The notes below the pieces were generated by a model. It made no database searches and was not told the DNA's origin. It saw nothing but the letters and a program-made list of their open reading frames with translations. A stretch of 64,000 nucleotides of DNA, from the IMG/VR virus record IMGVR_UViG_3300022752_000030, positions 47,238-111,237 of that record. One strand, written 5' to 3'. The stretch comes from a virus. The position numbers were made by a program, and so were the translations under genes. Of the stretch, positions 7,282 to 40,093 are shown piece after piece. Each line of letters starts with the position of its first letter. Positions within the stretch are counted from its first letter, which is position 1.

Positions 7282-7297
7282 TTTCTCTCCAAGAGTT

Positions 7298-7333
7298 AAA
7301 AAAAAGGAGATCCACTTTTGGTGGGTCTCCTTT
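7298..7333 (-). terminator. Rho-independent terminator
   Basis: AGGAGACCCAC-CAAAA-GTGGATCTCCT followed by a T run. Confidence 0.85.
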
Positions 7334-7345
7334 GCGTTTGCTTAA

Positions 7346-7615: not shown

Positions 7616-7669
7616 AATAATCTCCTAATGACAAAGTTTAACAAAATCTTGCGTATTGCAAGTTCACAA

Positions 7670-7698
7670 ATCATAACATTATATAGTGATCAAGTCAA
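7670..7698 (-). promoter_or_regulatory. sigma70 promoter TTGACT-17-TATGAT with extended -10
   Basis: Direct sequence match upstream of the HTH gene. Confidence 0.65.
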
Positions 7699-7719
7699 GT
7701 ACTTTTGTGGTACACTTGA

Positions 7720-8979
7720 TCATCTGCCAACTTGTGGCAGATATTTTTCCTTAGTTTGATCCCAATTCAAATAGATAAGGTCATCATAGAAAAGTGTTTC
7801 ATATGAAACATTATTCTTTTTTTGTAATTGTCTGATTCGACCCTTAGCATACTTGGTTTTCCAAATATTGGCAAGAGTTTCTTCACTCGTATCGAAAGAT
7901 TTTACCAATTTACCTTCACCAATTTCTTTTCGTAAGAAATCATTTGTATTATTATACAATGGTGAAAAATAAATTCCTCGCTGATGTTCGGTACGAATTA
8001 AATTTTTAGGAATACCAAGCTTTGAATAAGCAAAGTTTAAAGACCTATTTTTGTGATCACGTTTGAGTGGAAGACCTTGTTGATTTTTGGCTTCCCACCA
8101 TTCAAAATATTTACGGGTATGATTTTCTTTGATCCAATCAAAAACCATTCTCATAGTTTTTTTACTCGGTTCAAAAGCAACCGAACCACTAGAAAAACCC
8201 ATTTTATTCCAGTGTTCTAGACCATCATATTGAGATAAACCTCCAGACTTGGTGTTACCATATAATGAAGTAGTTGTAACTCCAACAAGGACATCACCAT
8301 ATTGTTTTTTCCAATCTTTTTGTACTGTATCAGATAAACACATCAATGCCAACAACTTACCACCCATGTAATTAAAACCTAATGGTTGCAACGGCACAAT
8401 TGTGGAACCAATTGCAGTATGGTTGATCATGTGTTGTTGAGTTTTTACATCACGAGCCCATCCTATTGCATTATCTCTTGGTGTCAAATCTAGAAAATCT
8501 GAAGAAATACAAATAACACCAAGATATTTTCCTGTCACTTCATCAGTAAGAGTGTAAAATAAATTACGACCAATATTCGAATTATTCTTCATTGTTGAAG
8601 AAAATGTACGTATAGCATTCCATGTTTCCGCAAGTGGTCCGTTTGATAAGACCATAACCGGTTTTAATTTTTCAAAATCATCAGGTTCTTGTGGCATCCA
8701 AAAGTTTGATTTAACTTTCTGTATTAGTTTTTCTTGTTCTGTACTTTCCATCTGAAGTTCACTACCAAAAAGAGTAGATACTTCTTTGACTGGGTACCGT
8801 TCTTTAACCTCACACCATTTTTGATATAACGTGTATTCACGAACATCCATTTTTGATGCGTATGTTAAATCTTCAATGAGGATTTTTTTCATTGATTCCT
8901 CATCGATATGTTCAAACGAGCTGTTCTTTTCAGACCACTCTTTCCATTGTTTATCAACAAACTCTATCGGTGTTGCCAT
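7720..8979 (-). CDS. DUF4338 / Druantia DruA-like protein
   Basis: IGRNL, GKYLGVI, RDNAIGW, VPLQPLGFNYMGGKLLA, TTTSLYG motifs. Confidence 0.75.
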   Translation of the reverse strand: MATPIEFVDKQWKEWSEKNSSFEHIDEESMKKILIEDLTYASKMDVREYTLYQKWCEVKERYPVKEVSTLFGSELQMESTEQEKLIQKVKSNFWMPQEPDDFEKLKPVMVLSNGPLAETWNAIRTFSSTMKNNSNIGRNLFYTLTDEVTGKYLGVICISSDFLDLTPRDNAIGWARDVKTQQHMINHTAIGSTIVPLQPLGFNYMGGKLLALMCLSDTVQKDWKKQYGDVLVGVTTTSLYGNTKSGGLSQYDGLEHWNKMGFSSGSVAFEPSKKTMRMVFDWIKENHTRKYFEWWEAKNQQGLPLKRDHKNRSLNFAYSKLGIPKNLIRTEHQRGIYFSPLYNNTNDFLRKEIGEGKLVKSFDTSEETLANIWKTKYAKGRIRQLQKKNNVSYETLFYDDLIYLNWDQTKEKYLPQVGR

Positions 8980-8993
8980 TATATAAATTCCAT

Positions 8994-10712
8994 TTATTTT
9001 GCAATTTGCGAGAAATTATTCTTTTTCTCAAATTTAATTATGCTTCTAAATTTATCAAACAATTGATCACCTTTGTGTGATATAACAAATACATTTGTAT
9101 CTTGTCCCATTTCATGAATTAATTTTAAAAATTCTTCTGTACCAACTGTGTCTAAGCTTGAATCAAAAACCTCATCCAAAATTAACAAGTTTGTATTTGT
9201 AGAGTTTTTGAGTTTTGCAATTTGACGCCATGTAAACAATAACGCCAAATCAATACGCATCTTTTCACCTTCTGAAAAATTAGCATAGGAAAATTCATCA
9301 CGGTGACGACTCTTGATAGTTTCTTCAAAGTTTTCATTGATATTGAAATTAACAAAAAAGTCCATTGCAGACAAATATTTGTTAATTAACTTGTTCATTA
9401 TAGGCAAGTACTGTTTGATAATTTTAGTTTTGATGCCGGTATCTTTTAATAAAGATGAAGCAAATTCATAATAGTGTTTTTGTATAGAAAGTTCTTCTTG
9501 AGATTTTTGTAATGATACTAAATCAATTTTTAATTGTTTAAGTTTTTCATTTTCTTCTTCAAGGTTATCTTTGCGATTTGACAATTCTCTAATTTCTTCA
9601 TTCAACTTTGAAACATATTTCGTTATAGCTGTCATTGTTGACTGATGTTTAATGATTTCATTATTGTGTTCATTTATATGTGTAATGATATCATTAATTG
9701 TTTTTATTTGTTTTGAAATTTTATCAAGCTCTTGCGTAATTTCCTCAAGACCCTTTTTCTGATTATCGACTTTTTCTTTTCGTTCTCTAATTTGTTCTTC
9801 TCTGAAGTGTTCTTCGATGTGTTGTTTACAGGTTGGGCAATTATCATTTTGTTCATAAAATTCAATATCTTTTTCGTTCTTTTTAATGTTACTTTCAACT
9901 TTGGCTTCAATCTGAAAAAGTTTTTTGGATTTTTTATTTAAAGAATCTTTATTATTTCCAATTTTATTCTGCAATACAGATATATGTTTAGAAATCAATT
10001 CAACATCATAAATTAAATTGTTTAACTGTTCATTCGATTTTTCAATCTCATCTTTCTTTCTCTGAATTTCAGCATCATTATGTTTCTTATGTTCTTCAAT
10101 ATTTTGTTTCTGTAAATTAATTTTTTCTTCAGTTAAATTAACTTCATATTTAATTTTTGTTGTAGTATCTTTAAGTGTAGATACTCGATCCTTCAACAAA
10201 GAATTCATTGAAGAAAAAATTTGAATGTCTAGTAAATCTTCAATAATAGTTCTTCTATCTGAAGCCGATAATTGCATGAAAGGAACAAAAGATGCTGATC
10301 CTAATATAACAACTTGTGTGAAAGATTTATAGTTTAATTTAAGAATATTTTTTTCTAATACTTCTTGATAATCTTTAGATGCAGCGTCTTGATTAATTAA
10401 GATATCGTTTTGATATATTTCAAAGATATTTGGTTTGATGCCACGTATGACTTTATATCTTTTTTGACCGATATTGAATTCAATTTCAACCACACAATCA
10501 CGCTGATTGATAGAATTTAATAAATTGGGTTTATTGATTTTTCGAAAAGGTTTACCAAACAAACCGAAACATAGTGCATCCAAAATAGTACTTTTTCCTG
10601 CACCATTTTGTCCGATAATTAGTGTGTTAGTTGATTTGGTTAAGTTTATTTCCGTAAAAGAATTACCAGTCGATAATAAATTACGCCATCTTACTTTTTG
10701 AAAAAGAATCAT
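8994..10712 (-). CDS. gp46: Recombination endonuclease subunit, SbcC/Rad50-like ATPase
   Basis: GQNGAGKST, CPTC zinc hook, FSEGE signature, ILDEVFD. Confidence 0.97.
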   Translation of the reverse strand: MILFQKVRWRNLLSTGNSFTEINLTKSTNTLIIGQNGAGKSTILDALCFGLFGKPFRKINKPNLLNSINQRDCVVEIEFNIGQKRYKVIRGIKPNIFEIYQNDILINQDAASKDYQEVLEKNILKLNYKSFTQVVILGSASFVPFMQLSASDRRTIIEDLLDIQIFSSMNSLLKDRVSTLKDTTTKIKYEVNLTEEKINLQKQNIEEHKKHNDAEIQRKKDEIEKSNEQLNNLIYDVELISKHISVLQNKIGNNKDSLNKKSKKLFQIEAKVESNIKKNEKDIEFYEQNDNCPTCKQHIEEHFREEQIRERKEKVDNQKKGLEEITQELDKISKQIKTINDIITHINEHNNEIIKHQSTMTAITKYVSKLNEEIRELSNRKDNLEEENEKLKQLKIDLVSLQKSQEELSIQKHYYEFASSLLKDTGIKTKIIKQYLPIMNKLINKYLSAMDFFVNFNINENFEETIKSRHRDEFSYANFSEGEKMRIDLALLFTWRQIAKLKNSTNTNLLILDEVFDSSLDTVGTEEFLKLIHEMGQDTNVFVISHKGDQLFDKFRSIIKFEKKNNFSQIAK

Positions 10713-11792
10713 GTTTGTTCAGAATTTAAGGACTCAATATAGAGTTCTTTTAATAAAGTTTTCAACTTGTTGTTATCAATGTTATCTTCTTTAATGGAAT
10801 CAACATAACCATTTAAAATCGTCAATGTGTCTTCTGCTTGATCTACCATATCATCATCAACACCTTCTGTCAATTCGGTAAAATCTTCAGCAATAGTAAT
10901 ATCGATAGGATTGACATTATACAAGTTATTCATGAACTTGTCAAACAGATACGGATTTGTTTTGTTTACAACTACCACTTTAACATATGTGTTGGTATAT
11001 GTTGTTAGGTCTTTTTTTGTTATTTCCGAAATTGATTCGATTTTGTCATCGTAAACAATTCGATGAAACATCCTGTTAGGATTTTCTATAAATTCTAATT
11101 CTTTTGTTTCGATATCAAAAAGATGAAATCCTCTTTTATCATTATAATCTTGCCAAGTAAGTTCATAAGGATTACCCAAATAATAAATGCCATCAGCACT
11201 AGATTTGTGATGGTAATGACCACTAAAGGTATGTTCGAATTTACGAAATATTGATCTATCAAGGCCTTCTTCACATGGCATACCACGATACATTGCGAAT
11301 CCAGCAATTTCGAAATGTCCCATGCAAATATTTGCTGATGTGTTTTTAATTTCTTGCATAGAATTTTCATAGTTCTCTGCACAAATCCAAGGAATCATAC
11401 AAACATCGTGATTTGTATCCGAATATTTCAGATGAATAGTTTGTGGTGAATCAATCACGACTATGTTTTGGTATTCACGCAATAACAAATCAACAGAATT
11501 TACATCATTAGTATTTTTGAAATACGTATCATGGTTTCCTGCCAACATGTAAACATCTATCAATTCTTTTTCAAGAATATCAAAGAACATTTCTTTTGTT
11601 CTTTTAAGAGAGTAAAAATTTACATATTTTCGGCGATCAAAAGTATCACCAAGAATTAAAACAGTTTTAATGTTTTGTTCTTTTAATTTTGGAAAGAAGG
11701 TGTCTCGATAAAATTTTTCGTAAAAATCTAAAAAATGAACTGAATCATTCCTCGCACCGAAAATGCTGGTCGGTTATTACTGCTACTTTCAT
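10709..11792 (-). CDS. gp47: Recombination endonuclease subunit, SbcD/Mre11-like; 1-nt frameshift near 11760
   Basis: MKVAVITDQHF (start 11792, SD AGGAGG) lies in a different frame from GARND...LGDTFD...GNHD...GHYH. Confidence 0.9.
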
Positions 11793-11848
11793 TCCGACAC
11801 CTCCTTTTTCAAAAAATAAATGTTAAAATTAAAATCAAAGAAACAATA

Positions 11849-12277
11849 TTATTGTTTTTTATTCATGATGTCACCAATTCTATTTCTAAGTTCAGTTGTG
11901 CTGAAACTGTGTTTTCTAGAATTGAAATAGACTTCCATCATTAAATTTGAACCAGTATATTGTTTACCTCTGTATTCTTCTCCTATGATTCTAACATCAA
12001 TAGGATAGGATGTCAAGATATCCATCAATTCTTTTTCTGTGGCATATGGTATAATTTCATCAACATATTTACAAGCATCAACTTGCACGTATCTTTCGAA
12101 AACGGATTGTATAGGTTTATTTTTCCATTCTCTGTCGATTGTAGGATCAGTTTGCAAACCTACAATCAAATATTCACATTGCGTCTTTGCTTCTTTAAGC
12201 ATCATTACGTGGCCCGCATGAAACAAATCAAACGCACTTGCAACAAAACCTATTTTTTTACCTTTTATGTTTGTCAT
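11849..12277 (-). CDS. Cytidylyltransferase (TagD/RfaE-like HxGH family)
   Basis: FDLFHAGH, LIVGL, YVDEI, C-terminal STT. Confidence 0.9.
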   Translation of the reverse strand: MTNIKGKKIGFVASAFDLFHAGHVMMLKEAKTQCEYLIVGLQTDPTIDREWKNKPIQSVFERYVQVDACKYVDEIIPYATEKELMDILTSYPIDVRIIGEEYRGKQYTGSNLMMEVYFNSRKHSFSTTELRNRIGDIMNKKQ

Positions 12278-12280
12278 CTT

Positions 12281-12820
12281 TTACTCCATGAATTTTTCAA
12301 CACCCTTTGGTATCTTTAATAATTTCTTTTCTTCTTTTTTTGCATTTCTGCTCACTTCATAAGTCTCAATAAATTCTGCAATATTATCATACATTTCAAA
12401 TTGTTTTGACGTACCATCTTCAAAGTCCATCATTTCAAATTCGTCTAAAACACCAACCTGTTCAGTAGCTTTGTATTTAATGTACAGTTGTTTCTTCTCT
12501 TTTTGAATTCTTCTAAGAAAAGCAAAGTAAATAATTTGAGTAAAATAAGCAAAAGGATTCTTTGATATTGTAGGATTAAAGTTATCAAAATACATCAAAC
12601 AATTTTCAATACCATCAGAAATCATTTCATCTCTGTACGTATAATTAATAAAGTTTGGTTTATGTGATAAACCTTCAGCTATTTTCATCCAACACTCACC
12701 AATATAATCCGGAATCTTCGGTGGAGGTAAATTTGATTTTTCAGCTTCAGAACAAGCGGCCTTGTACTCAACCAAAGCTTTTAAAAAATCTTCATTATTA
12801 ATGTAATTTCGTTTATTCAT
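12281..12820 (-). CDS. gp55: Late-transcription sigma factor
   Basis: YINNEDF, NFINYTYRDEMISDG, NPFAYFTQI, AFLRRIQKEK. Confidence 0.96.
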   Translation of the reverse strand: MNKRNYINNEDFLKALVEYKAACSEAEKSNLPPPKIPDYIGECWMKIAEGLSHKPNFINYTYRDEMISDGIENCLMYFDNFNPTISKNPFAYFTQIIYFAFLRRIQKEKKQLYIKYKATEQVGVLDEFEMMDFEDGTSKQFEMYDNIAEFIETYEVSRNAKKEEKKLLKIPKGVEKFME

Positions 12821-12842
12821 TCAAATATACCATAAAAAGTTG

Positions 12843-12871
12843 TTGACAAACGGCTTGACATATCGTATAGT
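12843..12871 (+). promoter_or_regulatory. Plus-strand (antisense) sigma70 promoter TTGACA-17-TATAGT with a second TTGACA in the spacer
   Basis: TTGACA 12843-12848 and 12855-12860; TATAGT 12866-12871. Confidence 0.55.
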
Positions 12872-12905
12872 TCGGTATGTAGCCCTGATGATATAAATCC
12901 ATATA

Positions 12906-13268
12906 TTAATGAACTGTTATTCCTTTATAAGTTTCCAGTTCTTCTACTGCTTTTAATATTTCCATCATTTCTTCATTTTCTTTAGAAGCTTTTTGTTCTA
13001 AGAACTCATTCATTTTTTCTACTGTATTCAAATAATATTCTTCAAACGATTCATTAGGATCGTACATACAAAGTACATCTTCCATTTTAACAACAACATG
13101 ATTTGTTTTCATTAACGATAATGGAAGCCATTGATTCATAATCAGATTGCCGTTTCTCACTTCAAATACCATTGGATTTTTTATTTCCAACATGTTTTCG
13201 TATAAAAAATAAAAACAAATAACATCAAGCCCATCTTTAAATCTTACTATCTTAATGTTGTTTTCCAT
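12906..13268 (-). CDS. Hypothetical protein downstream of uvsW
   Basis: ORF overlapping uvsW end; IKIVRFKDGLDVI and QWLP pattern. Confidence 0.75.
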   Translation of the reverse strand: MENNIKIVRFKDGLDVICFYFLYENMLEIKNPMVFEVRNGNLIMNQWLPLSLMKTNHVVVKMEDVLCMYDPNESFEEYYLNTVEKMNEFLEQKASKENEEMMEILKAVEELETYKGITVH

Positions 13269-28591: not shown

Positions 28592-29368
28592 TTAGTTCAA
28601 GAAGAATTCTAGTGGAGCACCATAATTCTTTTCCATTTCAGCTTCTAATCTTTCAATTTCATTGACCGCTTCTTGATAGATTTTATCACCATTTAAAGTA
28701 ACACCACCTGGAAGTTGCATACCAGCAAACTTCTTTAGGTTATTACCCCAAGTTCTTTTGATTAATTCTGTGGCATATTCTTTTAACCAACGATCATTCC
28801 AAACTTTTGAATAAACATCGGGATTAATAACCGCATAACATTCTGCAATTACTACTGTTCCTGCTGGTGCTTCTGATTGACCCCAAGCCCAATCAATATA
28901 CAGTCTTTGCATATGTCGTTGAAATCGTATAGGAACTTCACCCGTAAACATTAATTCTAAAGAACGTAAATGTTGTTGTGTTAACGTGTAGTTGATATAT
29001 GATGCAGACGTAAAATCATACAATTCGTTTAATCTAAGTTGATATCTTAAATCAAACATATTAACTGTTGACTGTGAATCTGAGATTGGAAATATACGAG
29101 TAACACCAACAATTTCCATTGCATTGTTGGCTTCATCTTTAGATTCACTCAAGTCAAGATACTTATTTGTTATATCTTGTTGTTGAACTGCTTTGATGTA
29201 ATATACTTTTTGTAGACCATCAAAATGGTAATCTTGCCAGTATTGCAAAGCATCGTCAATACGATCTTCTATTTGATCATCATCAACGTTAATTTCAATA
29301 ACTGGAAAACCTAGTCTTCTTAAACAATAGTCTTTAAAAGTATATCTGTCGGTAATTGGATTTGCCAT
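28592..29368 (-). CDS. gp13: Neck protein
   Basis: YCLRRLGFPVIEINV, WGNNLKKF, QLPGGVTLNG. Confidence 0.95.
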   Translation of the reverse strand: MANPITDRYTFKDYCLRRLGFPVIEINVDDDQIEDRIDDALQYWQDYHFDGLQKVYYIKAVQQQDITNKYLDLSESKDEANNAMEIVGVTRIFPISDSQSTVNMFDLRYQLRLNELYDFTSASYINYTLTQQHLRSLELMFTGEVPIRFQRHMQRLYIDWAWGQSEAPAGTVVIAECYAVINPDVYSKVWNDRWLKEYATELIKRTWGNNLKKFAGMQLPGGVTLNGDKIYQEAVNEIERLEAEMEKNYGAPLEFFLN

Positions 29369-29399
29369 GACGTTATTTACCCATAGTTTTATTGGCTAT

Positions 29400-30659
29400 T
29401 TATATTCTCAATTGTCCGGGTAGTCTAGGCATGCCGTCTTTAATTGCAACTAACCATGCGGATGTAACACAAACATTTAAATTTTTCATCCATTCGTTTG
29501 GAAAATACGTTTCTTTTCTGTATTCTTGAAATCTAATTGTTTTGTTATCTATAAAATTTGCTAGATATGCATCTGTGTAATACAGAAAACTATTTTCGTT
29601 CCAGTAACTTACATGTGTTGGATCTTGAAAAGCGCCACGACCATCTGTACTAGGAACCTCAATAAATGTCCAACCACCTGGTGCCAAAACACGATGTATC
29701 TCAGACATTATTTTTGTTTTATCTGTTAAATGTTCCAAAATATGACTTGCATTTAATACACCAACAGAATTGTCAGGTAAAGGAATTCCTTTATTTAAAT
29801 CGTATACAATATCAGCATCAGGTCGTAAATCAACAGAAATGTAATTTGGATATGGATTCAAACCACCGCCAATATCTACCTTTAAAAGATTTCTATCGAG
29901 TGCATCTTTTTCTGCCAATTCTCTTGCATATTGATTAAACAATTCTTTTGTTTTTATTTGAATTGCTTCATTTCTGGCTATGAATGTGTTGTCTCCAGTA
30001 ATTCTGTAAAGATAAAGAACTTTTGGTATTCTGACCATTTTTGTTTTTAAATAAGTTCGAATACACAATTCGTGATCATCACAAATAGAAAGTTCTACAT
30101 TATGGCCACCCAACTCTTTATATACAGATGTTCTCCATGATCTCACGTGATCTGGTGCCCACCAAATATATCCTAAACTATGACTGGTGGGCTCAAAACT
30201 ATTCATTGCAATAAGTTTTTTTCCTTTCCATTCAAAATCTCTGTAAGTCCATCCATATTCTGATCCGTAAGGAATAAAATTATCTTCCATGTGCAACATT
30301 GCATCATCACTATAAACAAAACCAACATCTGGATTTTGATAGGCTTTATACAATTCTTCTAAACAATCCGGTGTGATAATGTCGTCATGATCCAATTCGA
30401 CAAGAACATCTCCTGTTCCACTATTAAAGGCCGCATTTTTAACTGCACCGACATTTGTATTTTTTTCTTTTGCACAAATGATTACAACACGGTTATCATT
30501 TTTAATTTTTTCTGGTATGTGTTGCGGTGTGCATTTGTTGTTTAGATAAAGAATCCATTCCCAATTCTCATAGGTTTGATTACAAATACTTTCGTATAAT
30601 TCTACTAAAAAAGGAATGTTTTCTGGACTGTGTTCTGGAGTTATTAAACTAAATTTCAT
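29400..30659 (-). CDS. GT2 glycosyltransferase fused to class I SAM methyltransferase
   Basis: SICNQTYENWEW, ELDHDD (DxD), ICDDHEL; C-terminal VDIGGG, SHILEH, RVLAPGG, DPTH. Confidence 0.88.
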   Translation of the reverse strand: MKFSLITPEHSPENIPFLVELYESICNQTYENWEWILYLNNKCTPQHIPEKIKNDNRVVIICAKEKNTNVGAVKNAAFNSGTGDVLVELDHDDIITPDCLEELYKAYQNPDVGFVYSDDAMLHMEDNFIPYGSEYGWTYRDFEWKGKKLIAMNSFEPTSHSLGYIWWAPDHVRSWRTSVYKELGGHNVELSICDDHELCIRTYLKTKMVRIPKVLYLYRITGDNTFIARNEAIQIKTKELFNQYARELAEKDALDRNLLKVDIGGGLNPYPNYISVDLRPDADIVYDLNKGIPLPDNSVGVLNASHILEHLTDKTKIMSEIHRVLAPGGWTFIEVPSTDGRGAFQDPTHVSYWNENSFLYYTDAYLANFIDNKTIRFQEYRKETYFPNEWMKNLNVCVTSAWLVAIKDGMPRLPGQLRI

Positions 30660-30661
30660 AA

Positions 30662-32383
30662 TTAATCAAAGAAAAATAAATGTGTTAATCTTCCGTCTTC
30701 TATTCCTTGACCAAAATAAGGTCCGGCCGAATGTATGCATCGTGCATCCATAATGACGAGTCTATTGTATATATTTGCTGCTGAATCCGTCACATCAAAT
30801 TTTGTGCTGTCATAGAAACCTCCAGCAAAAGCACCGGACGAATCATTATCCGTTGAATGTCTTGTGCCGTTAAGTTTTGATTGATGTAATCTGGTACCAC
30901 TTTCTAAAGGCGCATTTGGAGTTAAATAAATCATTGCGGCCCATTTTTGTAAATCGTAGTGATAAACTTGTGGATCTTCTGCTGTTGTTATTTGAAAACA
31001 ACCATTATAATCATGATTTTCAAAATTGAAAATTTCTTCACCAATAATTTTTTCAAAAGCTTCTTTGAGTCCTTTGGGTCTATATGGTACAACCGAACGT
31101 AATCCTTTGTACCAACGAATGTCTGATTTATATTCAACATTCAGTGCAAATTCTCTTACTTCGTCCGGATTTTGATAAAAATTATCTACGATAAAAAATC
31201 TTTTATTTGTGTTGGTGTTGATAAAGAAAGGTAAAGAATTTTTGTTTTCTTCTTCTACTTTTTGTTTTGCTAACTCATGCAATTTCTGAACTCTGCCTGT
31301 AGGACTATCATGATATAATGACGTATCAATCATCACGACAAACCTAGGAAATACATTTGTTCTTTCTGGTTGCATCATTCTTGTGGTGCAACTCAACATA
31401 CTTTTGTAATCACCTAAATTGTTATATATTTGAGCCAAAGCAAAAAGGTGATCGTTTCTTTCTGGAGCAAATTTTTCAGAAAGATTATAAGTGTTTATCG
31501 CATTGTTTACATCACCAATAAAGTTATAACATTCTCCTGCAAAAAATAATGCCATGTAACACATTTCATCAACTTCATTTTCGCCAATTTGTACTGGAAA
31601 TTTAGTAGATTGTTTGTGTCTTACAAATTCTTCAAAGTAATATATCGATCTTTTTGCGTATTCTTTTTTTTGCGTTTCACCTAATGGAAATGAACTTGAT
31701 TGGTATGCGTCCGTATAACTTTTACCAATGTACCAAAAATGATACAAGTCAGTAGTAAATGATTTTTCTTTGATCATTTTTTCTTCAAGAATCAAAGCGT
31801 CACTAATAAATTTTACAGGATTTGACCAACTCTGACCCTCATTGTATCCAACTTGTCTAAATTTTGGTGACAAATCGATTCTTTCAAAGTTTTCACCAAT
31901 ACCTTCAATATCACAATAAACTGTTTCGTGACAAGTATCGTGATTGAATCTCCAGGGAAGATTTGCGTTCCACATCCAAGCTCTATGATAAATGCATGTA
32001 CCACTTACTGCTGGTATGTGAAAAGCTTGTGTGTTTTTATTTTCTAGTGGTGACCAGTCGAAATCGTCATCAATTTCTAAAACTTCATCACAATCCATTT
32101 TTAAAATCCAATCGCAACCGTGATCTGTTTTTTGGCAGTATTGAATCAAGTGGTCACGATTCCATCCGAAACCAACCCAACCTTCTTCTACATCATACAA
32201 TTCACCTGAAAGTTTATTGTTGATTAAAAAATCTTTGACTATTTGGTCTGTACCATCAGTTGATCCATTATTCTGTAATACATAATAATCAACATATGGT
32301 AAACAAGAATCTAACATTCTTTTGATAACCGATGCTTCATTTTTAAACATTGTTATCATTACAATTTTACAATTTTTCTTCAT
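30662..32383 (-). CDS. GT2 glycosyltransferase-TPR-2OG-Fe(II) oxygenase (DUF6445-like) fusion
   Basis: KNEA, GSTDGT, KMDCDE; TPR-like helices; IVDNFY, HYD...IH...R jelly-roll motif. Confidence 0.85.
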   Translation of the reverse strand: MKKNCKIVMITMFKNEASVIKRMLDSCLPYVDYYVLQNNGSTDGTDQIVKDFLINNKLSGELYDVEEGWVGFGWNRDHLIQYCQKTDHGCDWILKMDCDEVLEIDDDFDWSPLENKNTQAFHIPAVSGTCIYHRAWMWNANLPWRFNHDTCHETVYCDIEGIGENFERIDLSPKFRQVGYNEGQSWSNPVKFISDALILEEKMIKEKSFTTDLYHFWYIGKSYTDAYQSSSFPLGETQKKEYAKRSIYYFEEFVRHKQSTKFPVQIGENEVDEMCYMALFFAGECYNFIGDVNNAINTYNLSEKFAPERNDHLFALAQIYNNLGDYKSMLSCTTRMMQPERTNVFPRFVVMIDTSLYHDSPTGRVQKLHELAKQKVEEENKNSLPFFINTNTNKRFFIVDNFYQNPDEVREFALNVEYKSDIRWYKGLRSVVPYRPKGLKEAFEKIIGEEIFNFENHDYNGCFQITTAEDPQVYHYDLQKWAAMIYLTPNAPLESGTRLHQSKLNGTRHSTDNDSSGAFAGGFYDSTKFDVTDSAANIYNRLVIMDARCIHSAGPYFGQGIEDGRLTHLFFFD

Positions 32384-33090
32384 AATGTTCTCTGTTGTAT
32401 AAATTTTAAAATTTCAGGATCATTTTTTTGATCTTCAGTTGGAGCATATAATGCTCTATTTCTAGTATCTATAACACCTCCAGGTTCAACCATATAGTAC
32501 ATTGCAATACTTTTTCTATAAACTCCTTCAGGACATTTAATAGGATCATTAAATCCGTGCCATGAATTTTGTGAAGTGTCAAATAACAAAGCACGATTAA
32601 ATTTATTTTCAATCGTTATTATTTTTTCTTTTGGTAAATTTGTGGTACTATCGTGTGACCAAAATTCAAGATTGCCTCCCCAATTGGTATTCCAATCTGG
32701 TGTCAGGTAAAAAATTAAATTGAATTTTCTTAGTAGATTTAATTTTGGATGCATCGAATAATCAAGATGCACATTTAGTTTACTGTCTTTACCCTGAATG
32801 TGCCAACCAGAACCGTGAAGTCCTAAATCTGGATATACTTTATTTGTACCTGTTATATCTTGAATTTTTTTTATAAATTCCGATGAATTTAAATATTGAA
32901 AAAATTGATATGTTTTTGGTGGAAAAAAATACCAATTATTACTTGCTTTTTTGATTTCAAGTGGATTGTTGTAAACAAACCAATTAGGTGAATTATAATC
33001 TATAAATTCTTCTGATAATTGTTTTGCGTGATCGTGTTCTAAAAAATTATCAATCACATAATATTTGAAAGGTGAATCACCAACAATCAT
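32380..33090 (-). CDS. 2OG-Fe(II) oxygenase, prolyl-hydroxylase-like (start likely 33090)
   Basis: VIDNFL, VHLD, YLTPDW...GGNLEFW, FNRALLF, SWHG, RKS. Confidence 0.9.
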   Translation of the reverse strand: MIVGDSPFKYYVIDNFLEHDHAKQLSEEFIDYNSPNWFVYNNPLEIKKASNNWYFFPPKTYQFFQYLNSSEFIKKIQDITGTNKVYPDLGLHGSGWHIQGKDSKLNVHLDYSMHPKLNLLRKFNLIFYLTPDWNTNWGGNLEFWSHDSTTNLPKEKIITIENKFNRALLFDTSQNSWHGFNDPIKCPEGVYRKSIAMYYMVEPGGVIDTRNRALYAPTEDQKNDPEILKFIQQRTL

Positions 33091-33662
33091 TTCCACTTAG
33101 GACCTTCAAACCATGCAGCAATACTATATCTGGTTCCTTTTGTTACCGGATATGCTCTGTGTCTTAACATTGAGGGAAAGAAAATGATTGAGCCTTGCTC
33201 CTTTGTTTCTTTTGAATCCAAAGGAGTGCCAGCATCTGTAATTTCGAAATTGCCACCTTCGTAATCTTTTGGATCAGAAAGTTGAATTATACAAGATAGT
33301 TTTCTATGATATAATGGATCATTATTCATCCAAAAAACGTCATGATGTTCTTTATATTCACCGAAATAACTACTATCATATTCAGCCAATTGAACAAAAT
33401 TTAAATGTGTGATGTGTATATTAAAGAAATCTTTATTCGCTTGTATACCTGTTTTCCACAACAAATCAAAAAGGTAGGTGAATCTCCAGTCTGAAGAATT
33501 GATAAATTTTACTTTACTCTTTCTTATACTGGAGTCCACTCTACCATTATCATTTAATCCAACAACAGCATCTTGTGTAGGTATTGCATTTGCATCACGG
33601 ATAATTTTTTCACAAGTCGCTTTATCAATATACGATTTAAAATAACACCACTCACCATTCAT
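33087..33662 (-). CDS. PKHD/P4H-type 2OG-Fe(II) oxygenase (start likely 33662)
   Basis: HHD, RKLSCIIQLS, YEGG, FPSMLRH, PVTKGTRYS; SD AGGAG. Confidence 0.92.
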   Translation of the reverse strand: MNGEWCYFKSYIDKATCEKIIRDANAIPTQDAVVGLNDNGRVDSSIRKSKVKFINSSDWRFTYLFDLLWKTGIQANKDFFNIHITHLNFVQLAEYDSSYFGEYKEHHDVFWMNNDPLYHRKLSCIIQLSDPKDYEGGNFEITDAGTPLDSKETKEQGSIIFFPSMLRHRAYPVTKGTRYSIAAWFEGPKWK

Positions 33663-33680
33663 AAACAAACTCCTAAAAGA

Positions 33681-34766
33681 TTATAATTTAGATTTTATAT
33701 ATTCAATCTGTGATTTTTGTTCTTTTAATGCTTGTACTAATAATGGAACAATTTTTTCATACATAACAGTCAAATATTTTTCACCTGATTTACTATTTCC
33801 ATATTTATCAGTGTCAAAAGGAGCAATTGCGGTTGCTTCAGGTAAAACAGATTCAACTTCTTGTGCAATTAAACCAATTTGTGGGCCGTCAATAGTAACA
33901 CCAAGCTCTTTAGCTTGTTCTGTAAATTCATAATAAACGCCATTTAATTGTTGAATTTTTTCTAGAGAATTTTCAATAACACCAGAAATATCTTTCAATC
34001 TTTTATCTGAATAATTCGCTACAATATTTCCTGTAGCTCGGACACTACCAGTTGGACCTGCTACGGTATTTACACCCAATGCAGCAACTTGAGTTACTGC
34101 ACCGGAAGAACCACCTGTCGGACCTGTTGGACCTGTTGGACCTGTTGGTCCAGTTGGACCTGTTGGACCACTTGTTCCTGTTGGACCTGTTGGTCCTTGA
34201 ACGCCTTGAAAACCTTGTAAACCTGTCGCAGCTGCAGGACCTGTAGGACCTTGAGCACCTGGTACACCAGTTGGTCCAGTAGAACCTGTTGCACCAGTAG
34301 AACCTTGAGCACCTTGTCTACCTTGGAAACCTGTAGCACCTTGAGTACCTGCTGCACCTTGAGCACCTGGTACACCAGTTGGTCCAGTAGAACCTGTTGC
34401 GCCAGTAGAACCTTGAGCACCTTGAAAACCTTGAGCACCCTGAACACCAGGAACTCCAATAGAACCTTGAACACCTGTTGGTCCTGTTGGTCCTTGAACC
34501 CCTTGTAAACCCTGAGCGCCTTGAGCACCTTGAAAACCTTGAGCTCCTTGAACACCAGAAACGCCTGTTGCACCTTGAGCGCCTGGTACACCAGTTGGTC
34601 CTTGAGTACCTGTAGCACCTTGAACGCCCTGAGCACCTTGTGAGCCCGCTAAACCTTGTGGTCCTTTAATGCCGGATTGTGGTCCAATCCAATTACCATT
34701 AGAGTCTAAAACATCTGTTGAACCAACAGTTAGTCCGTTTTTAACGATGAAATTGCTTGTTGCCAT
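33681..34766 (-). CDS. Collagen-like fibre protein C with C-terminal S74 intramolecular chaperone
   Basis: Long Gly-X-Y tract (GAQ/GPT); [28 protein letters not shown]. Confidence 0.9.
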
Positions 34767-36960
34767 TACTTACCTCTATTTTCTAATTTTGTTAGTAACG
34801 CAGAAATTTGTTTCTGTTGTTCTTTAATTGCTTCGATCACAATAGGAACAACCTTTTCATACTGAACTGTAAGATAATTTTCTCCAGTTTTACTATTTCC
34901 ATTTGCGTCAATATCAAAAGGAGCAGGCGAAACAATTTCAGGTGCTGAAGTTTTAACTTGTTGTGCAATTAAACCCACTTGTTTACTATAATCATTGTAA
35001 CCAAAACTTTCAGCCAATTTGCTCTGAGTGTAATAAATTCCACTCCACGCTTGAATTTTTTCCAAACAATTTTCTATTGTACCTGAAATATCTTTCAATC
35101 TTTTATCGGATGCACCAGCCGTAATATTTCCTGATGCTTGAATTGTGCCTGTTGGGCCTACAGCAGCATTGATGCCTAAAGCTGAAACGTTTGGTGTTGA
35201 TGTTGTGCCTCCACTTGCTGAAGGACCTTGAGGTCCTTGTGGACCTGTTGGTCCTGTACCTCCTTGTGGACCTGTTGGTCCTGGAGAACCTTGTGGACCT
35301 GTTGATCCTGCACCACCTTGTGGTCCTCTAGGACCTTGTGCTCCAGTTCCACCAGTTGGCCCAGTTGGTCCCTGAGCACCTTGGAAACCCGAAGCACCTT
35401 GAGCACCTACTGGTGATGAACCTTGTGGACCCTGTGGACCTTGAGGTCCTGTAGCACCTTGAGCACCTGTTGCACCTTGAGCACCTTGGAAACCCGAAGC
35501 ACCTTGAGCACCTACTGGTGATGAACCTTGTGGCCCTTGAATGCCAGCAGCACCTTGAGCACCAGTTCGACCTTGTGGACCCTGAGCACCAGTAGCACCC
35601 TGCACGCCTTGAGCACCTATTGGTGATGAACCTTGTGGCCCTTGAGTACCAGCAGCACCTTGAGCACCTTGAAAACCAGTGGCACCTTGAGCGCCTTGGA
35701 AACCAGAAGCGCCTTGATCACCAGCAGAACCTTGAAAACCTGTTGGTCCTTGAACACCTTGATAAGAAGATGCTGGACCAGTCCAAGTTCCACTTGAGTT
35801 AATGACATCTGTTGATCCAACAGTTAGTCCGTTTTTAACGATGAAATTGCTTGTTGCCATATTAGTTCAAAGCTCCTTCTAATTGTTCTATTTCTTTTTG
35901 TTGTTCTTTAATCGTTTCAACAATTAGAGGTATTAATCTTTCATACTGAACTGTCAAATAAAACTCACCTGTTTTACTGCCATTTCCCTCTGTTACATCA
36001 AATGGAGCAGGCTTAACAATTTCAGGCATAACTTTTTGAACTTCTTGTGCAATCAAACCAACTTGATTTTTATAATTATTGTAACCAAAAATTTCAGCTA
36101 ACTTATTTTGTCTATAAAATACACCGTTTAATTGATATAATTTTTCACCTGCATTTTTAATTGTTTCGATATTATCTTTAAGTCTAATATCGGAATAACC
36201 TGCTATAATTGATCCTGTGGCTTGTAATGTACCTGTTGGACCTGCTGCAATATTTACACCAAGAGCGGTTGCTTGAGTACCCAATGAACCGCCAGTGCCA
36301 GATGGACCTTGTGGTCCAGTACCTCCAGGTGAACCTGTTGGGCCAGTACCTCCAGGTGATCCTGTAGGACCTTGGGCTCCTGGTACACCATTTGGTCCTG
36401 GTGAACCTGTTGGTCCTGTTGGACTCGTTGGACCTGTAGGGCCTGTACTTCCTGCTGGTCCTTGAGAACCTTGTGGTCCTGTTGGTCCTGTTGCTCCAGT
36501 CACACCGGTTGTACCAGTACCTCCTGTTGATCCTTGAACACCAGCTGGTCCTTGAACACCAGCTGGTCCTTGAGAACCTTGTGGTCCTGTTGGTCCTGTT
36601 GCTCCAGTCACACCAGTTGTACCAGTACCTCCTGTTGATCCTTGAACACCAGCTGGTCCTTGAACACCAGCTGGTCCTTGAGAACCTTGTGGTCCTGTTG
36701 GTCCTGTTGCTCCAGTTGTACCTTGAAAACCTGCTGGTCCTTGAACACCAACAGTTCCTTGAGTTCCCTGTGGACCTGTTGATCCTTGAACGCCGGCTGG
36801 TCCTGTTGGTCCTGTTGCACCAGTTGTACCTTGAAAACCTGCTGGTCCTTGAACACCAACAGTTCCTTGTGATCCTTGAGCGCCCACAGTTCCTTGTGAA
36901 CCCTGAGTGCCGGATATACCCGAAAAGCCTTGCGGACCTTGAGCGCCCGCAAGACCTTTC
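34110..36960 (-). repeat. Three 9-nt-period collagen repeat tracts (about 34110-34690, 35215-35760, 36290-36960) with internal block duplications
   Basis: ggacctgtt/gcaccttga arrays; 117-nt tandem duplication near 36466-36699. Confidence 0.9.
34766..35860 (-). CDS. Collagen-like fibre protein B with S74 chaperone
   Basis: Gly-X-Y tract with GSSPxG interruptions; ASDKRLK, GLIAQQV. Confidence 0.9.
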
Positions 36961-37058
36961 ACGTTGGATTGTGATCCTATCCAGTTACCTGAAGAATCTA
37001 TGACGTTTGTTGTTCCAACAGTTACGCCATTTTTAACGATGAAATTTGAATTAGCCAA
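35862..37058 (-). CDS. Collagen-like fibre protein A with S74 chaperone (TTG start)
   Basis: Gly-X-Y tract; YSDIRLK, GLIAQEV; SD GGGGAG upstream of TTG; N-terminus paralogous to B and C. Confidence 0.88.
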
Positions 37059-37094: not shown

Positions 37095-39611
37095 TCAAAC
37101 AGCGATTAATGTAGCAACAATTTTCGCAGTTGTTGTACTGTTTGTTGGAGTAAACAATACATTCAAATTACCAGATGTGATTGATGCATCAAAAGTTCCT
37201 AATGATGAACCAGACTTAACTTCACCGTATTGTGCAACGTATGCTGTTGTACCATCGTGAATAATATTTAATTCAATCATATGATAAGAAGAACCACTTG
37301 TCATTTGTGCCAATATTTTTGCTGAGCGATATGTTGCTATTGCAAAAGAAAATGCTGTAACTTGTGATGTTGTAGAAGTCGTATATGATGTTGAAGTCAT
37401 ATATGAACTTGTATTGATAGTTACAGATGTATTGGATGACAATGCAGAAGCATAAATTGGGCTGTTAGATGAAATTGCACCAGTTACTACACCACCAGAT
37501 TTTGCTAAAGAATTTGTTGTTGCAGTATTAGCAGCAGCAAATGCAGAGTTAGCATAAGAACCAGCTGTTACTGCTTTGGAGTCTGCTGTAGCTGCATTAG
37601 TTGTAGCAGTATTTGCTTGAGCATATGCAGAGTTAGCATAAGAACCAGCTGTTACTGCTTTAGAATCAGCTGTATTAGCAGCAGCAAATGCTGAGTTAGC
37701 ATAAGAACCAGCTGTTACTGCTTTAGAGTCTGCTGTAGCTGCATTAGTTGTAGCAGTATTTGCTTGAGCGTATGCTGAATTTGCATAAGAACCAGCTGTT
37801 ACTGCTTTAGAATCAGCTGTATTAGCAGCAGTAAATGCAGAGTTAGCTTGAGTGAATACTACGTTAAGTTGTGGTGTTGAAGCTATGTTAACTTCCGAAC
37901 CAGTTGGTCCCATAACAAAAGTACCGTTAGTTTCATTCCAAACGACACGAACATTTGGTTGATCGCCACGAATAACTTGGAAACCAGAATATGTTCTAGA
38001 TACGCCTGAACCAGACTCACCTTTATTTAAATCGATGATGTTATCATCAACGTTTAAGTTTGTTGTGTGTACAGTAGTCGTTGTACCATTGATTGTTAAA
38101 TTACCAGTAATCGTTGCATCACCAGTAACAGTTTGATTGCCAGAAATTTGTACTGTTGGTGCAGTCAATGTAACTTGTGTATTGGAAGTAATTCTTGCTA
38201 AAGAACCTAATCCTGATGCTTCAACAATAACATCACCGTTTTGACCTGTTGTTTGAATTCTTGTTGTTGAATTTGATGTTAATGTAATATTACCTGTACC
38301 ATAAGTTTGTAATTGTATACCTTGATTTGTATTAGCGGTAAAAGTAATATTTTCAGCACTAGATCCTAAAACTGGACTACCATCAACATAAAGAGTATTT
38401 GCACCAAGGTGTAAGTCGTTTGCATAGATACTTGCAAATTTTAAAGTTGGTGATCCAATATTTGTTGTATTGCTTGTTTTTGGTAAAATATTACCATTAA
38501 CTGTAACTGTACCACCAATTGTACCACCTGATGTTACAAATGTATTTCCTACGTTAGCAGCAGCATATGCAGAGTTAGCATAAGAACCAGCTGTTACTGC
38601 TTTGGAATCAGCTGTAGCTGCATTGGTTGTTGCTGTATTAGCTTGACCATATGCAGAGTTAGCATAAGAACCAGCTGTTACTGCTTTGGAGTCTGCTGTA
38701 TTGGCTGCTGTATATGCAGAGTTAGCATAAGAACCAGCTGTTACTGCTTTGGAGTCTGCTGTATTGGCTGCTGTATATGCTGAATTTGCATAATAACCAG
38801 CTGTTACTGCTTTGGAGTCTGCTGTAGCAGCATTAGTTGTAGCGGTATTTGCTTGATCATACGCAGAATTGGCTTTTGTAAATGCTGGAGCAATCTGTGG
38901 TGCCACGTTATTAGCTGCAGCAAATGCTGAGTTTGCAACATTAAATGCTGAGTTAGCATAAGAAATTGCACCCAAATCAACATAAGTATTTCCGTTACCG
39001 TCAACGCCTGTAATATTATTTAATACTTCCAACATTGCTGGACTAATTTGTGCAACGTTTGAAGATAATGTAGAAACAGTATTTGTTAGTGAAAGAAGGT
39101 CAGTTTGATAAGCTAATGTTCCACCATTTACAGATAAACGATTGTCTGTGTTTGCAACTGTCAAACCACCAATAACAACTGTATTTGAAGCATTAACTGT
39201 ATTAACGCTTAATTTTCTTGTGCTAAAAAATACAGCTGTACCAGTAATTGCTTCTGTTAATAAGACTCTTGCTGTATTGTTATTTACAATTTCAATATTA
39301 GCAACTTGTAAATTATGATTGGCATCATATACAAAAAAACCTAGGTCAGAAGAACCTAGGTCGTGTGTTACTGTCCAGGTATTGGATGCAACACCTTGTG
39401 TGTGCAAATATGCTGATTGTGCGGTACCAATTGGTTGCCAAGTCCAATAATTGCTACCGTAATTTAATTCGGTGTAAATGTATGGCGTTCCTTGTTGTAC
39501 AATAATTGTTCTTGGTGCTGGATTTGCTGGAAAACCATTATAATCCGTTTCGAAAATTAGGCCGGCTGTTAGATTCAAGCCTCCTAAAACTCTAATTTGA
39601 TTTGATGCCAT
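37095..39611 (-). CDS. Tail fibre / fibre adaptor with heptad ANSAY repeats
   Basis: N-terminal WTVTHDLG domain, two coiled-coil repeat blocks, beta-rich middle, C-terminal YRSAKILAQ domain. Confidence 0.75.
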   Translation of the reverse strand: MASNQIRVLGGLNLTAGLIFETDYNGFPANPAPRTIIVQQGTPYIYTELNYGSNYWTWQPIGTAQSAYLHTQGVASNTWTVTHDLGSSDLGFFVYDANHNLQVANIEIVNNNTARVLLTEAITGTAVFFSTRKLSVNTVNASNTVVIGGLTVANTDNRLSVNGGTLAYQTDLLSLTNTVSTLSSNVAQISPAMLEVLNNITGVDGNGNTYVDLGAISYANSAFNVANSAFAAANNVAPQIAPAFTKANSAYDQANTATTNAATADSKAVTAGYYANSAYTAANTADSKAVTAGSYANSAYTAANTADSKAVTAGSYANSAYGQANTATTNAATADSKAVTAGSYANSAYAAANVGNTFVTSGGTIGGTVTVNGNILPKTSNTTNIGSPTLKFASIYANDLHLGANTLYVDGSPVLGSSAENITFTANTNQGIQLQTYGTGNITLTSNSTTRIQTTGQNGDVIVEASGLGSLARITSNTQVTLTAPTVQISGNQTVTGDATITGNLTINGTTTTVHTTNLNVDDNIIDLNKGESGSGVSRTYSGFQVIRGDQPNVRVVWNETNGTFVMGPTGSEVNIASTPQLNVVFTQANSAFTAANTADSKAVTAGSYANSAYAQANTATTNAATADSKAVTAGSYANSAFAAANTADSKAVTAGSYANSAYAQANTATTNAATADSKAVTAGSYANSAFAAANTATTNSLAKSGGVVTGAISSNSPIYASALSSNTSVTINTSSYMTSTSYTTSTTSQVTAFSFAIATYRSAKILAQMTSGSSYHMIELNIIHDGTTAYVAQYGEVKSGSSLGTFDASITSGNLNVLFTPTNSTTTAKIVATLIAV
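37520..38960 (-). repeat. Two blocks (about 37520-37850 and 38560-38960) of 21-nt-module repeats
   Basis: Repeated gcagagttagcataagaaccagctgttactgcttt encoding ANSAY/ANTADSK/AVTAGSY. Confidence 0.85.
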
Positions 39612-40067: not shown

Positions 40068-40093
40068 TGGAGGGAGATTTTACTCTCCCTCCT
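40068..40093. terminator. Hairpin after the repeat fibre gene
   Basis: GGAGGGAG/CTCCCTCC inverted repeat; U tract weak. Confidence 0.55.

Follow-up and report, generated by a model that had tools for sequence, protein, structure and literature searches.

Does a bacteriophage modify its own collagen fibres with enzymes encoded beside them? The question is raised by seven genes of an uncultured aquatic T4-like phage contig, the linear IMG/VR record IMGVR_UViG_3300022752_000030 (111 kb, estimated to be 67% complete), whose 3' 64 kb (positions 47,238 to 111,237) constitute the 64,000-nt window analysed here. Three of the genes encode collagen-like chains with a C-terminal Peptidase_S74 (S74) domain. 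They are followed by genes for two 2-oxoglutarate (2OG)-Fe(II) oxygenases, termed ox1 and ox2, for a fusion of a family 2 glycosyltransferase (GT2) with a tetratricopeptide repeat (TPR) domain and a DUF6445 oxygenase domain (GT2-TPR-DUF6445), and for a GT2-methyltransferase fusion (GT2-MTase), and then by the gene for the neck protein gp13. Maturation of collagen by hydroxylation and subsequent glycosylation has been documented for animals and for giant viruses such as mimivirus (PMC9546862, PMC5802723), and no description of a phage-encoded collagen maturation cassette was found in the literature searched. An initial annotation of the window had proposed that the cassette modifies its own fibres. 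The analysis presented here suggests, from sequence and predicted structure, that the phage probably does decorate its own collagen fibres, and that some of the cassette enzymes may instead build or trim sugars.

Collagen genes and modifying enzymes travel together

Relatives of both fusion enzymes, of gp13 and of the collagen C-terminal domain were fetched from IMG/VR, and 309 loci were annotated using hidden Markov models built from the window proteins and first-round hits, together with a Gly-X-Y counter. The full gene order of three collagens, ox1, ox2, GT2-TPR-DUF6445, GT2-MTase and gp13 was repeated in dozens of non-identical viral contigs, with only 50–78% identity between their enzymes and those of the window. 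Given this recurrence, the arrangement is far beyond chance. Among 103 non-identical enzyme-anchored viral loci, 54 carried enough flanking sequence to be judged. A collagen open reading frame (ORF) of at least 30 triplets lay no more than 10 kb away in 43 of these, and three short collagens were present at one further locus (L084), giving a total of 44. The median gap between enzymes and collagen was 1.3 kb, and in two additional records the collagen genes were located farther along the same record.

The closest relatives of gp13 (70–83% identity) mostly lack the entire block, and collagen was found in only 3 of 31 gp13-anchored loci without the enzyme pair (at least 6 kb of upstream sequence being required). 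Co-occurrence of collagen-S74 genes with these enzyme families across T4-like relatives, the check that the initial annotation had set, therefore returned a strong association (44/54 against 3/31; Fisher p = 6e-11, uncorrected for relatedness). From the linkage counts and the gp13 relatives without the block it follows that the collagens and enzymes are gained and lost together, and the data support a single accessory cassette, conserved and mobile, in which the collagens and the four enzyme genes travel. Wherever a collagen triplet was complete (18 cases in addition to the window), the enzymes came next. An independent arrangement is seen in the cultured cyanophage DSL-LC02, in which a mannosyltransferase-like glycosyltransferase gene, an FkbM-type methyltransferase and a DUF6445 protein form a small operon, with a collagen-like S74 protein immediately on one side and a tail fibre on the other.

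Three orthologous chain types in every set

Each of the three chains, termed alpha, beta and gamma, contains 58–75 Gly-X-Y triplets in runs of at least six (Pfam Collagen, E 6e-21 to 2e-30) and ends in a Peptidase_S74 domain (PF13884, E 1e-6 to 7e-14), with the Ser/Lys motif S-D-(K/I)-R-L-K beginning at residues 289, 251 and 253, respectively. In the form S-D-x-R-x-K, the motif is found in 66 of 68 enzyme-linked collagens. The alpha chain opens with a 35-aa N-terminal domain, followed by the triplets and the S74 chaperone domain, and its TTG start codon is preceded by a GGAG Shine-Dalgarno sequence. Residue counts bore out the tract composition given in the initial annotation, with Pro mainly at X (26–33% of X and 2–6% of Y), Gln (35–55%) and Thr (22–37%) at Y and very little Lys. 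The latter accounts for 0–2% of X and Y positions in the window, about 0.1% in cassettes with both ox1 and ox2, and no more than 0.1% in most sets. Both GPT triplets (from 3 to 11%) and Thr at Y (from 10 to 23%) become more frequent as the linked collagens approach their C-terminal ends.

A maximum-likelihood tree of the non-collagen C-terminal parts separated the chains into the three types, with clade support of 100/99 for gamma, 100/96 for alpha and 94/90 for beta. The gamma gene is always the third, and alpha and beta swap order among contigs. Each of the 16 non-redundant sets comprises a single chain of every type. The three lengths in a set are tightly correlated (r 0.95–0.98) and lie a median of 9 aa apart, with set means ranging from 254 to 795 aa. 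The C-terminal parts of the window chains are only 51–60% identical to one another, so recent gene conversion does not account for this pattern. One S74 type of each kind per genome, together with the co-varying lengths, suggests that the three chains form an obligate alpha-beta-gamma heterotrimer.

Sets with all three types include the window (33681–37058) and loci L001, L008, L015, L021, L025, L031, L035, L084, L087 and L230. In the window (37050–37058), as in one relative or more (L001), the alpha and beta genes have TTG starts with good Shine-Dalgarno sequences, and the gamma gene starts with ATG; this difference might tune the stoichiometry of the chains.

The oxygenases and collagen proline

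In alignments of 35–38 homologues, the HxD…H iron triad and the 2OG-binding Arg/Ser pair of the oxygenases were invariant or nearly so. The conserved residues are H108-x-D110, H170 and R180-x-S182 in ox1, and the invariant residues of ox2 are H110, D112, H180, R194 and S196. When profiles of both proteins were searched against the PDB, the matches were almost exclusively protein prolyl hydroxylases. For ox1 these were the PKHD proteins Sbal_3634 and PiuC (1e-11 to 1e-13; PiuC 1.7e-11), together with prolyl 4-hydroxylases (P4Hs) from Chlamydomonas (5e-7) and Bacillus anthracis (2e-6), PPHD, P3H1 and PHD2; no paper on the function of PiuC was found in the literature searched. The ox2 profile matched OGFOD1 (3e-13), a Dictyostelium prolyl hydroxylase, P4H, Trichoplax PHD and PHD2; its automatic JGI name is 'Rps23 Pro-64 3,4-dihydroxylase Tpa1-like', and a homologous-protein search with the same profile returned only close metagenomic relatives. 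Sequence profiles and predicted folds support the view that all three cassette oxygenases, including the DUF6445 domain described below, are nearest to protein prolyl hydroxylases.

Proline at position Y corresponds to the X-Pro-Gly site used by collagen P4Hs. Co-variation of this residue with ox1 was assessed across 28 cassette lineages, the GT2-MTase being less than 90% identical between lineages. At least 3% Y-position Pro occurred in 15 of 21 lineages with ox1 and in none of the seven without it (Fisher p = 0.0014), with medians of 7.0% and 0.5%, respectively (Mann-Whitney p = 0.007), phylogeny being uncorrected and the ox1 gene possibly sitting outside some of the fetched loci. No clear co-variation signal was obtained for the other enzyme-residue pairs tested. 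The three chains of the window hold nine X-Pro-Gly sites, mostly V-P-G-A-Q and S-P-G, and in the linked collagens Pro occupies Y in 5.5% of triplets, with G-A-Q next in 28% of these. Classic X-Pro-Gly hydroxylation had been set aside on the strength of the tract composition, which was too strong a statement given that nine such sites are present and that they co-vary with ox1. Together, these sequence patterns lend moderate support to ox1 being a genuine collagen prolyl hydroxylase.

The two fusion enzymes

An AlphaFold model (AF2) of the 573-aa GT2-TPR-DUF6445 fusion was obtained with a pLDDT of 89. Residues 1–327 of the model superpose on the glycocin glycosyltransferases SunS and ThuS with Z-scores of 19.9–21.2 and a root-mean-square deviation of 3.2–3.7 Å over 275–283 residues, the next glycosyltransferase having a Z of 16. 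The superposition spans both the GT2 and the helical domains, and the corresponding Foldseek matches had an E of 1e-14 and TM-scores of 0.54–0.62 normalised to the target. In the model, the fusion has the SunS/ThuS domain arrangement of a GT2 followed by C-terminal TPR-like helices. The D97-x-D99 motif of GT2-TPR and residues H475, D477, H551 and R565 of DUF6445 are conserved in the same alignments of homologues. Multi-domain matches of the whole model to LH3/PLOD3, AspH and P3H1 had low TM-scores. These comparisons support a peptide-glycosyltransferase fold for the GT2-TPR part and, with moderate support from the model, a protein-directed initiating transferase. No glycocin precursor was found nearby, the seven genes accounting for all cassette ORFs of at least 60 aa (shorter ORFs were not listed).

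The DUF6445 sequence profile matched no solved structure in the PDB. Modelled alone (pLDDT 91.5), the domain has as its nearest folds OGFOD1 (Z 14.1), Trichoplax PHD (13.0), Pseudomonas PPHD (12.6), and Tpa1 and PHD2 (both approximately 12). The lysyl hydroxylase (LH) domain of L230 and LH3 follow at Z 10.5 and 10.1, and NgTET1 and the AlkB family at 9.5–10.3 (NgTET1 10.1).

The GT2-MTase carries a D-H-D-D motif in its GT2 half and V-D-I-G-G-G, the S-adenosylmethionine motif I, in its class I methyltransferase half. Weak sequence matches were obtained to GalT1 (5hea), chondroitin synthase and TarS. GmaR and GalT1, both weak sequence matches named as glycosyltransferases in the PDB, act on proteins (flagellin and Fap1), GalT1 being part of the Fap1 protein-glycosylation pathway. 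In the ESM Atlas the GT2-MTase family is almost wholly viral, and a search of 401 sampled Pseudomonadota genomes yielded no homologue with an E of 1e-15 or below. Among the roles that ox2, DUF6445 and the GT2-MTase may fill are acceptor hydroxylation, sugar tailoring, and chain extension or capping.

Enzyme relatives away from collagen

A number of observations weigh against modification of the collagen fibres. In S-CRM01, a full-length GT2-MTase (53% identity) is found alone amid psbA, hli and small ORFs; the collagens of this phage precede gp13, 50 kb from the GT2-MTase, with no oxygenase beside them. A distant DUF6445 protein lies inside a large nucleotide-sugar and glycosyltransferase cluster in S-SSM7 and Sf-FS3. 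At loci L055 and L060 both fusions have ThyX and ribonucleotide reductase as neighbours, and the 54–62 kb of these records (31–37% complete) contain no collagen. Enzymes occurring independently of collagen had been named at the outset as grounds for abandoning the proposal, and they were found in part, in these uncoupled cases.

The bacterial homologues point the same way. A profile scan of 185,579 species genomes with ox2, from which 80 loci were kept, returned full-length homologues of 43–54% identity in many phyla, and none of the 80 loci had a collagen ORF within ±8 kb. In the 401 Pseudomonadota genomes, collagen was likewise absent within ±9 kb of all 13 strong ox1 homologues and all nine DUF6445 homologues; that bacterial ox1 homologues are never beside collagen counts against a collagen P4H role for ox1. 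Approximately six of nine bacterial ox2 neighbourhoods inspected with Pfam are surface-glycan or flagellin-glycosylation loci. The neighbours include GT2 enzymes, methyltransferases, flagellins with FdtA, and a 4,6-dehydratase with a DegT aminotransferase, with weak matches to Wzy_C (O-antigen ligase family, just under the Pfam cut-off) and RgpF. Because the bacterial ox2 homologues are mostly in glycan loci, collagen hydroxylation is not secure for every oxygenase, and when these contexts are taken with the phage cases away from collagen, sugars become plausible targets, in place of proline, for ox2 and possibly for DUF6445.

The remaining points concern fold, composition and statistics. The gradient of DUF6445 fold matches is shallow, the sugar and small-molecule oxygenases AviO1, HygX and the Evd enzymes having Z-scores of 11–12. 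Pro at X and Thr or Gln at Y do not clearly split enzyme-linked from unlinked phage collagens, a comparison made unreliable by the mere 5–12 unlinked proteins available. Both the linkage and the co-variation statistics ignore shared ancestry, and it is linkage and fold only that would designate the acceptor.

Two sets of bacterial loci merit description in their own right. In Methylophilus glucosoxydans (L337, 4300–9400), and also at L364 and L356, an ox2 homologue of approximately 50% identity adjoins a flagellin gene. The M. glucosoxydans locus additionally contains several similar-sized ORFs (one of them Pfam-checked) and an FdtA-type sugar isomerase and looks like a flagellin-glycosylation island, which hints that the ox2 oxygenase family serves protein-linked glycans in bacteria. 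In two Pseudomonadota (L460, approximately 7800–13000, and L461, approximately 7000–13100), an ox1-like domain forms part of giant ORFs (1,709 and 2,031 aa) that share the same downstream gene pattern.

Weighing the explanations

On balance, we lean towards the cassette being a fibre glycosylation and hydroxylation (maturation) module within the T4-like structural gene block. This reading is favoured because the enzymes are linked to collagen, lie in the structural block, include a peptide-glycosyltransferase fold with a TPR domain, and show co-variation of ox1 with Y-position Pro; the affinity of the oxygenases to prolyl hydroxylases agrees with it. The proposal that the cassette modifies its own fibres is upheld by these points and weakened by the presence of the enzymes away from collagen.

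The alternative that survives best, which we nevertheless judge unlikely, is that the enzymes alter the lipopolysaccharide (LPS) or envelope glycan of the infected cell, for example blocking superinfection, and that they lie near fibre genes in a hypervariable host-recognition region. Glycosyltransferases of the pelagimyophage host-recognition cluster have been ascribed to changes in host LPS, with collagen repeats treated separately (PMC7029224). Such remodelling would also be in line with the bacterial ox2 neighbours listed above, with the position of DUF6445 in the sugar cluster of S-SSM7 and Sf-FS3, and with the lone GT2-MTase in a non-structural region of S-CRM01. However, the cassette contains no membrane protein, flippase, polymerase or ligase; none of its enzymes has a transmembrane-like segment (maximum 19-residue Kyte-Doolittle mean 1.02), and by this sequence measure all are soluble. 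Its first glycosyltransferase has the SunS/ThuS fold with a TPR domain, the co-occurrence with collagen is far above what membership of the region alone would give, and the cassette lies within a structural gene block.

It is improbable that the enzymes bypass the collagens and modify other proteins of the virion, for instance the Ala-rich repeat fibres nearby, the neck or the capsid. Some collagen-free slots before gp13 do pair structural-looking proteins with modifying enzymes. Examples are three RCC1-propeller proteins with DUF6445, a sulfotransferase, a methyltransferase and a TPR protein (L192:1–10000), Gly_rich_2 proteins with two 2OG oxygenases (L161:4000–9600), and a group of GT2, sulfotransferase, ox1 and GT1 (L191:3700–8100). 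An 838-aa repeat fibre also lies directly upstream of the cassette in the window. Against this, where gene order changes the enzymes stay with the collagen genes and not with the Ala-rich fibre, and it is collagen Y-position Pro that co-varies with ox1.

Phage DNA hypermodification clusters likewise combine an oxygenase, a glycosyltransferase and a methyltransferase, which counts in favour of a last alternative. That the oxygenases act on host proteins or other non-fibre targets, for example through prolyl hydroxylation of the ribosomal protein uS12 or of EF-Tu, which would reprogramme translation, or through TET-like DNA base oxidation with glycosylation and methylation, has similarly poor prospects: among solved structures ox2 has its best relative in OGFOD1, a ribosomal prolyl hydroxylase (and its JGI name includes Tpa1-like), the EF-Tu hydroxylase PPHD is among the fold neighbours and the use of viral P4H genes has been called 'cryptic' (PMC9301287), but no Tet_JBP or DNA-methyltransferase Pfam match was found, the methyltransferase is a generic class I enzyme joined to a GT2, OGFOD1 stands well above NgTET1 and the AlkB family in Z, and this reading gives no account of the tight linkage to collagen.

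Locus layout and transcription

The terminase of the contig is approximately 55% identical to those of T4-like cyanomyoviruses, and psbA is absent from the 111-kb record. The minus-strand order gp13-gp14-gp15-gp16-gp17-gp18 is that of T4. Between gp13 and the Ala-rich repeat fibre (838 aa, 37095–39611) that lies directly upstream, the seven genes are co-oriented on the minus strand as first reported, and every domain assigned to them in the initial annotation was recovered by Pfam and PHROG (Table 1).

Table 1. Features of the collagen-enzyme cassette and its downstream landmark, in window coordinates
Feature	Position	Strand	Assignment and remarks
Collagen chain alpha, 398 aa	35862–37058	-	PF01391 and PF13884; about 75 Gly-X-Y triplets
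S74 intramolecular-chaperone/autoprotease domain of alpha	35865–36194	-	PF13884, E 7e-14; starts S-D-I-R-L-K (Ser289, Lys at +5)
Collagen chain beta, 364 aa, about 58 triplets	34766–35860	-	PF01391 and PF13884
S74 domain of beta	34769–35110	-	Starts at Ser251
Collagen chain gamma, 361 aa, about 62 triplets	33681–34766	-	PF01391 and PF13884; distal GPT run
S74 domain of gamma	33684–34010	-	Starts at Ser253
ox1, PKHD/P4H-type 2OG-Fe(II) oxygenase, 191 aa	33087–33662 (ORF to 33668)	-	PF13640 (2OG-FeII_Oxy_3); ATG behind AGGAG
ox2, OGFOD1/Tpa1-like 2OG-Fe(II) oxygenase, about 236 aa	32380–33096	-	PF13640
GT2-TPR-DUF6445 fusion, 573 aa	30662–32383	-	GT2 and helical TPR at about residues 1–381
DUF6445 oxygenase domain	30665–31228 (residues 386–573)	-	H475, D477, H551, R565
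GT2-methyltransferase fusion, 419 aa	29400–30659	-	Glycos_transf_2 and Methyltransf_11
T4-type late-promoter motif TATAAATA	29397–29404	-	Overlaps the GT2-MTase stop, 28 nt before the gp13 start
gp13 neck protein, head-tail adaptor	28592–29368	-	PHROG 211, E 2e-42; gp13-gp17 synteny; landmark outside the cassette

With likely ATG starts placed behind Shine-Dalgarno sequences, the successive gaps between the genes are 1, -1, 18, -4, -4 and 2 nt, and 31 nt separate the last of them from gp13. The spacing of at most about 20 nt given earlier thus holds inside the cassette (-4 to +18 nt) and is slightly exceeded at gp13. The late-promoter motif TATAAATA marks the 3' edge of the cassette and does not occur inside it. 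Across the window, its count shows no excess over chance; the promoter argument is therefore positional only, and the operon structure rests on gene spacing and on no strong terminator-like hairpin having been found between the cassette genes. The strongest terminator-like hairpin of the region (40069–40092 on the minus strand; nine pairs, six of them G-C) sits upstream of small ORFs that precede the 838-aa fibre gene, so a fibre-collagen-enzyme transcription unit may begin near 40060.

Two peculiarities were seen in the structural genes of relatives. At L158 (10000–17800), gp13-gp14-gp15 is followed by an inverted second copy, gp15-gp14-gp13, which is probably a chimeric or fold-back assembly. 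Downstream of gp16 at L008, L010–L014, L018 and L078, the large terminase gp17 of one lineage is interrupted by a 187-aa ORF that leaves parts of 295 and 403 aa; this could be an inserted mobile gene (a homing endonuclease?), an intron or an intein.

A proposed maturation pathway

Genes, domains, catalytic residues, predicted folds, linkage and the three length-matched chain types are observed; the acceptor, the residues that carry modifications, the sequence of steps, heterotrimer formation and the location of the fibre on the virion are inferred. The three collagen chains, made in the same block as other virion parts, would assemble into one alpha-beta-gamma triple helix, the three different S74 domains selecting the chains and setting their register, and then being released by self-cleavage at the conserved Ser in S-D-x-R-L-K. 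The four soluble enzymes encoded downstream would act in the cytoplasm, before or during folding of the helix. ox1, being P4H-like, would hydroxylate the sparse X-Pro-Gly sites, and the GT2-TPR enzyme would add the first sugar to a side chain of the fibre; the acceptor would be a Thr or Ser at the distal end, which is rich in Thr, or else a residue hydroxylated by the fused DUF6445. The GT2-MTase could then add a further sugar and methylate it, and ox2 may tailor sugar rather than protein, its bacterial relatives being found in surface-glycan loci. The complete phage 'procollagen' pathway, in which an S74-registered heterotrimer is hydroxylated by a P4H, O-glycosylated by a glycosyltransferase-hydroxylase fusion and capped by a glycosyltransferase-methyltransferase to yield a sugar-coated collagen whisker, is put forward tentatively, as a possibility that in its entirety is rather doubtful.

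Significance

As a genomic unit the cassette has good support; its biochemistry is a proposal drawn from sequence and models. P4H-like genes are among the most abundant 'auxiliary metabolic genes' of marine viromes (PMC9301287). The cassette offers a concrete and testable alternative, in which the enzymes serve the virion. Were this correct, an entire class of phage genes now labelled 'metabolic' would have to be re-annotated, and the full 'procollagen' pathway, if true, would explain why P4H-like genes of this kind are common in aquatic viromes. Glycosylated collagen would then be a means of phage-host recognition or shielding, and the soluble, compact enzymes, together with a three-S74 device for heterotrimer registration, would be available for making defined modified collagens in bacteria.

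Comparison with known systems

The closest precedents in logic are mimivirus L230 and R699 and animal LH3/PLOD3 with COLGALT1. Mimivirus, like this phage, encodes collagens, a hydroxylase and a glycosyltransferase. In LH3/PLOD3 and L230 a GT-A domain is fused to a 2OG oxygenase, which the phage order of GT2, TPR and oxygenase resembles in logic, and LH3 and the LH domain of L230 appear among the fold matches of the phage fusion. However, the phage collagen tracts are nearly free of Lys and hence of the Lys at Y that these enzymes would use, the phage oxygenase is nearer to prolyl hydroxylases (Z up to 14.1) than to lysyl hydroxylases (Z 10.1–10.5), its glycosyltransferase is nearest to SunS and ThuS with an intervening TPR domain, and the host is bacterial and not amoebal or animal. 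Given the lack of Lys sites and the different nearest folds, membership of the LH3/L230 family is not supported; of the proposed PLOD3/L230 analogy, the domain logic stands and the Lys sites and fold neighbours do not.

Two other systems were considered and rejected as matches. For phage Gtr-type O-antigen modification, the membrane flippase and glycosyltransferase partners were not found (no 19-residue segment exceeding a Kyte-Doolittle mean of 1.02), and for a TET/JBP DNA hypermodification cluster no Pfam match to a TET/JBP oxygenase or a DNA C5-methyltransferase was obtained (NgTET1 Z 10.1).

SunS and ThuS (PDB 7msn, 7msp, 7msk), the best structural match to the phage GT2-TPR, are soluble enzymes that glycosylate peptide side chains, and the DxD motif is invariant. 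They are only 14–15% identical to the phage enzyme, which differs in its fused 2OG oxygenase and presumed collagen substrate, and the phage cassette has collagens as neighbours in place of an adjacent glycocin precursor. With the prolyl hydroxylases (B. anthracis and Chlamydomonas P4H, PBCV-1 vCPH, OGFOD1/Tpa1, PHD2, PPHD and PiuC/YbiX), ox1 and ox2 share PF13640 and the HxD…H…RxS signature. However, ox1 is best matched by the uncharacterised PKHD group, and ox2 and DUF6445 by ribosomal hydroxylases, rather than by collagen P4H, and in further contrast to the collagen P4H systems, Pro in the phage tracts is mostly at X and not at Y, and bacterial homologues are not beside collagen.

Among prokaryotic collagens, BclA of the Bacillus exosporium consists of GPT repeats bearing O-linked methylated sugars. 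The phage chains resemble it as GPT-rich collagens of the prokaryotic world with a methyltransferase that would be involved in the glycan, their GPT and Thr-at-Y contents rising distally, and differ in being mostly Gly-X-Gln. The S74 domains are likened by the Pfam match in all three chains and by the S-D-x-R-x-K motif to the chaperones of endosialidase and the phage T5 fibre. In contrast to these, the phage keeps three orthologous S74 types per genome, which suggests that the domains serve in heterotrimer registration rather than in homotrimer folding.

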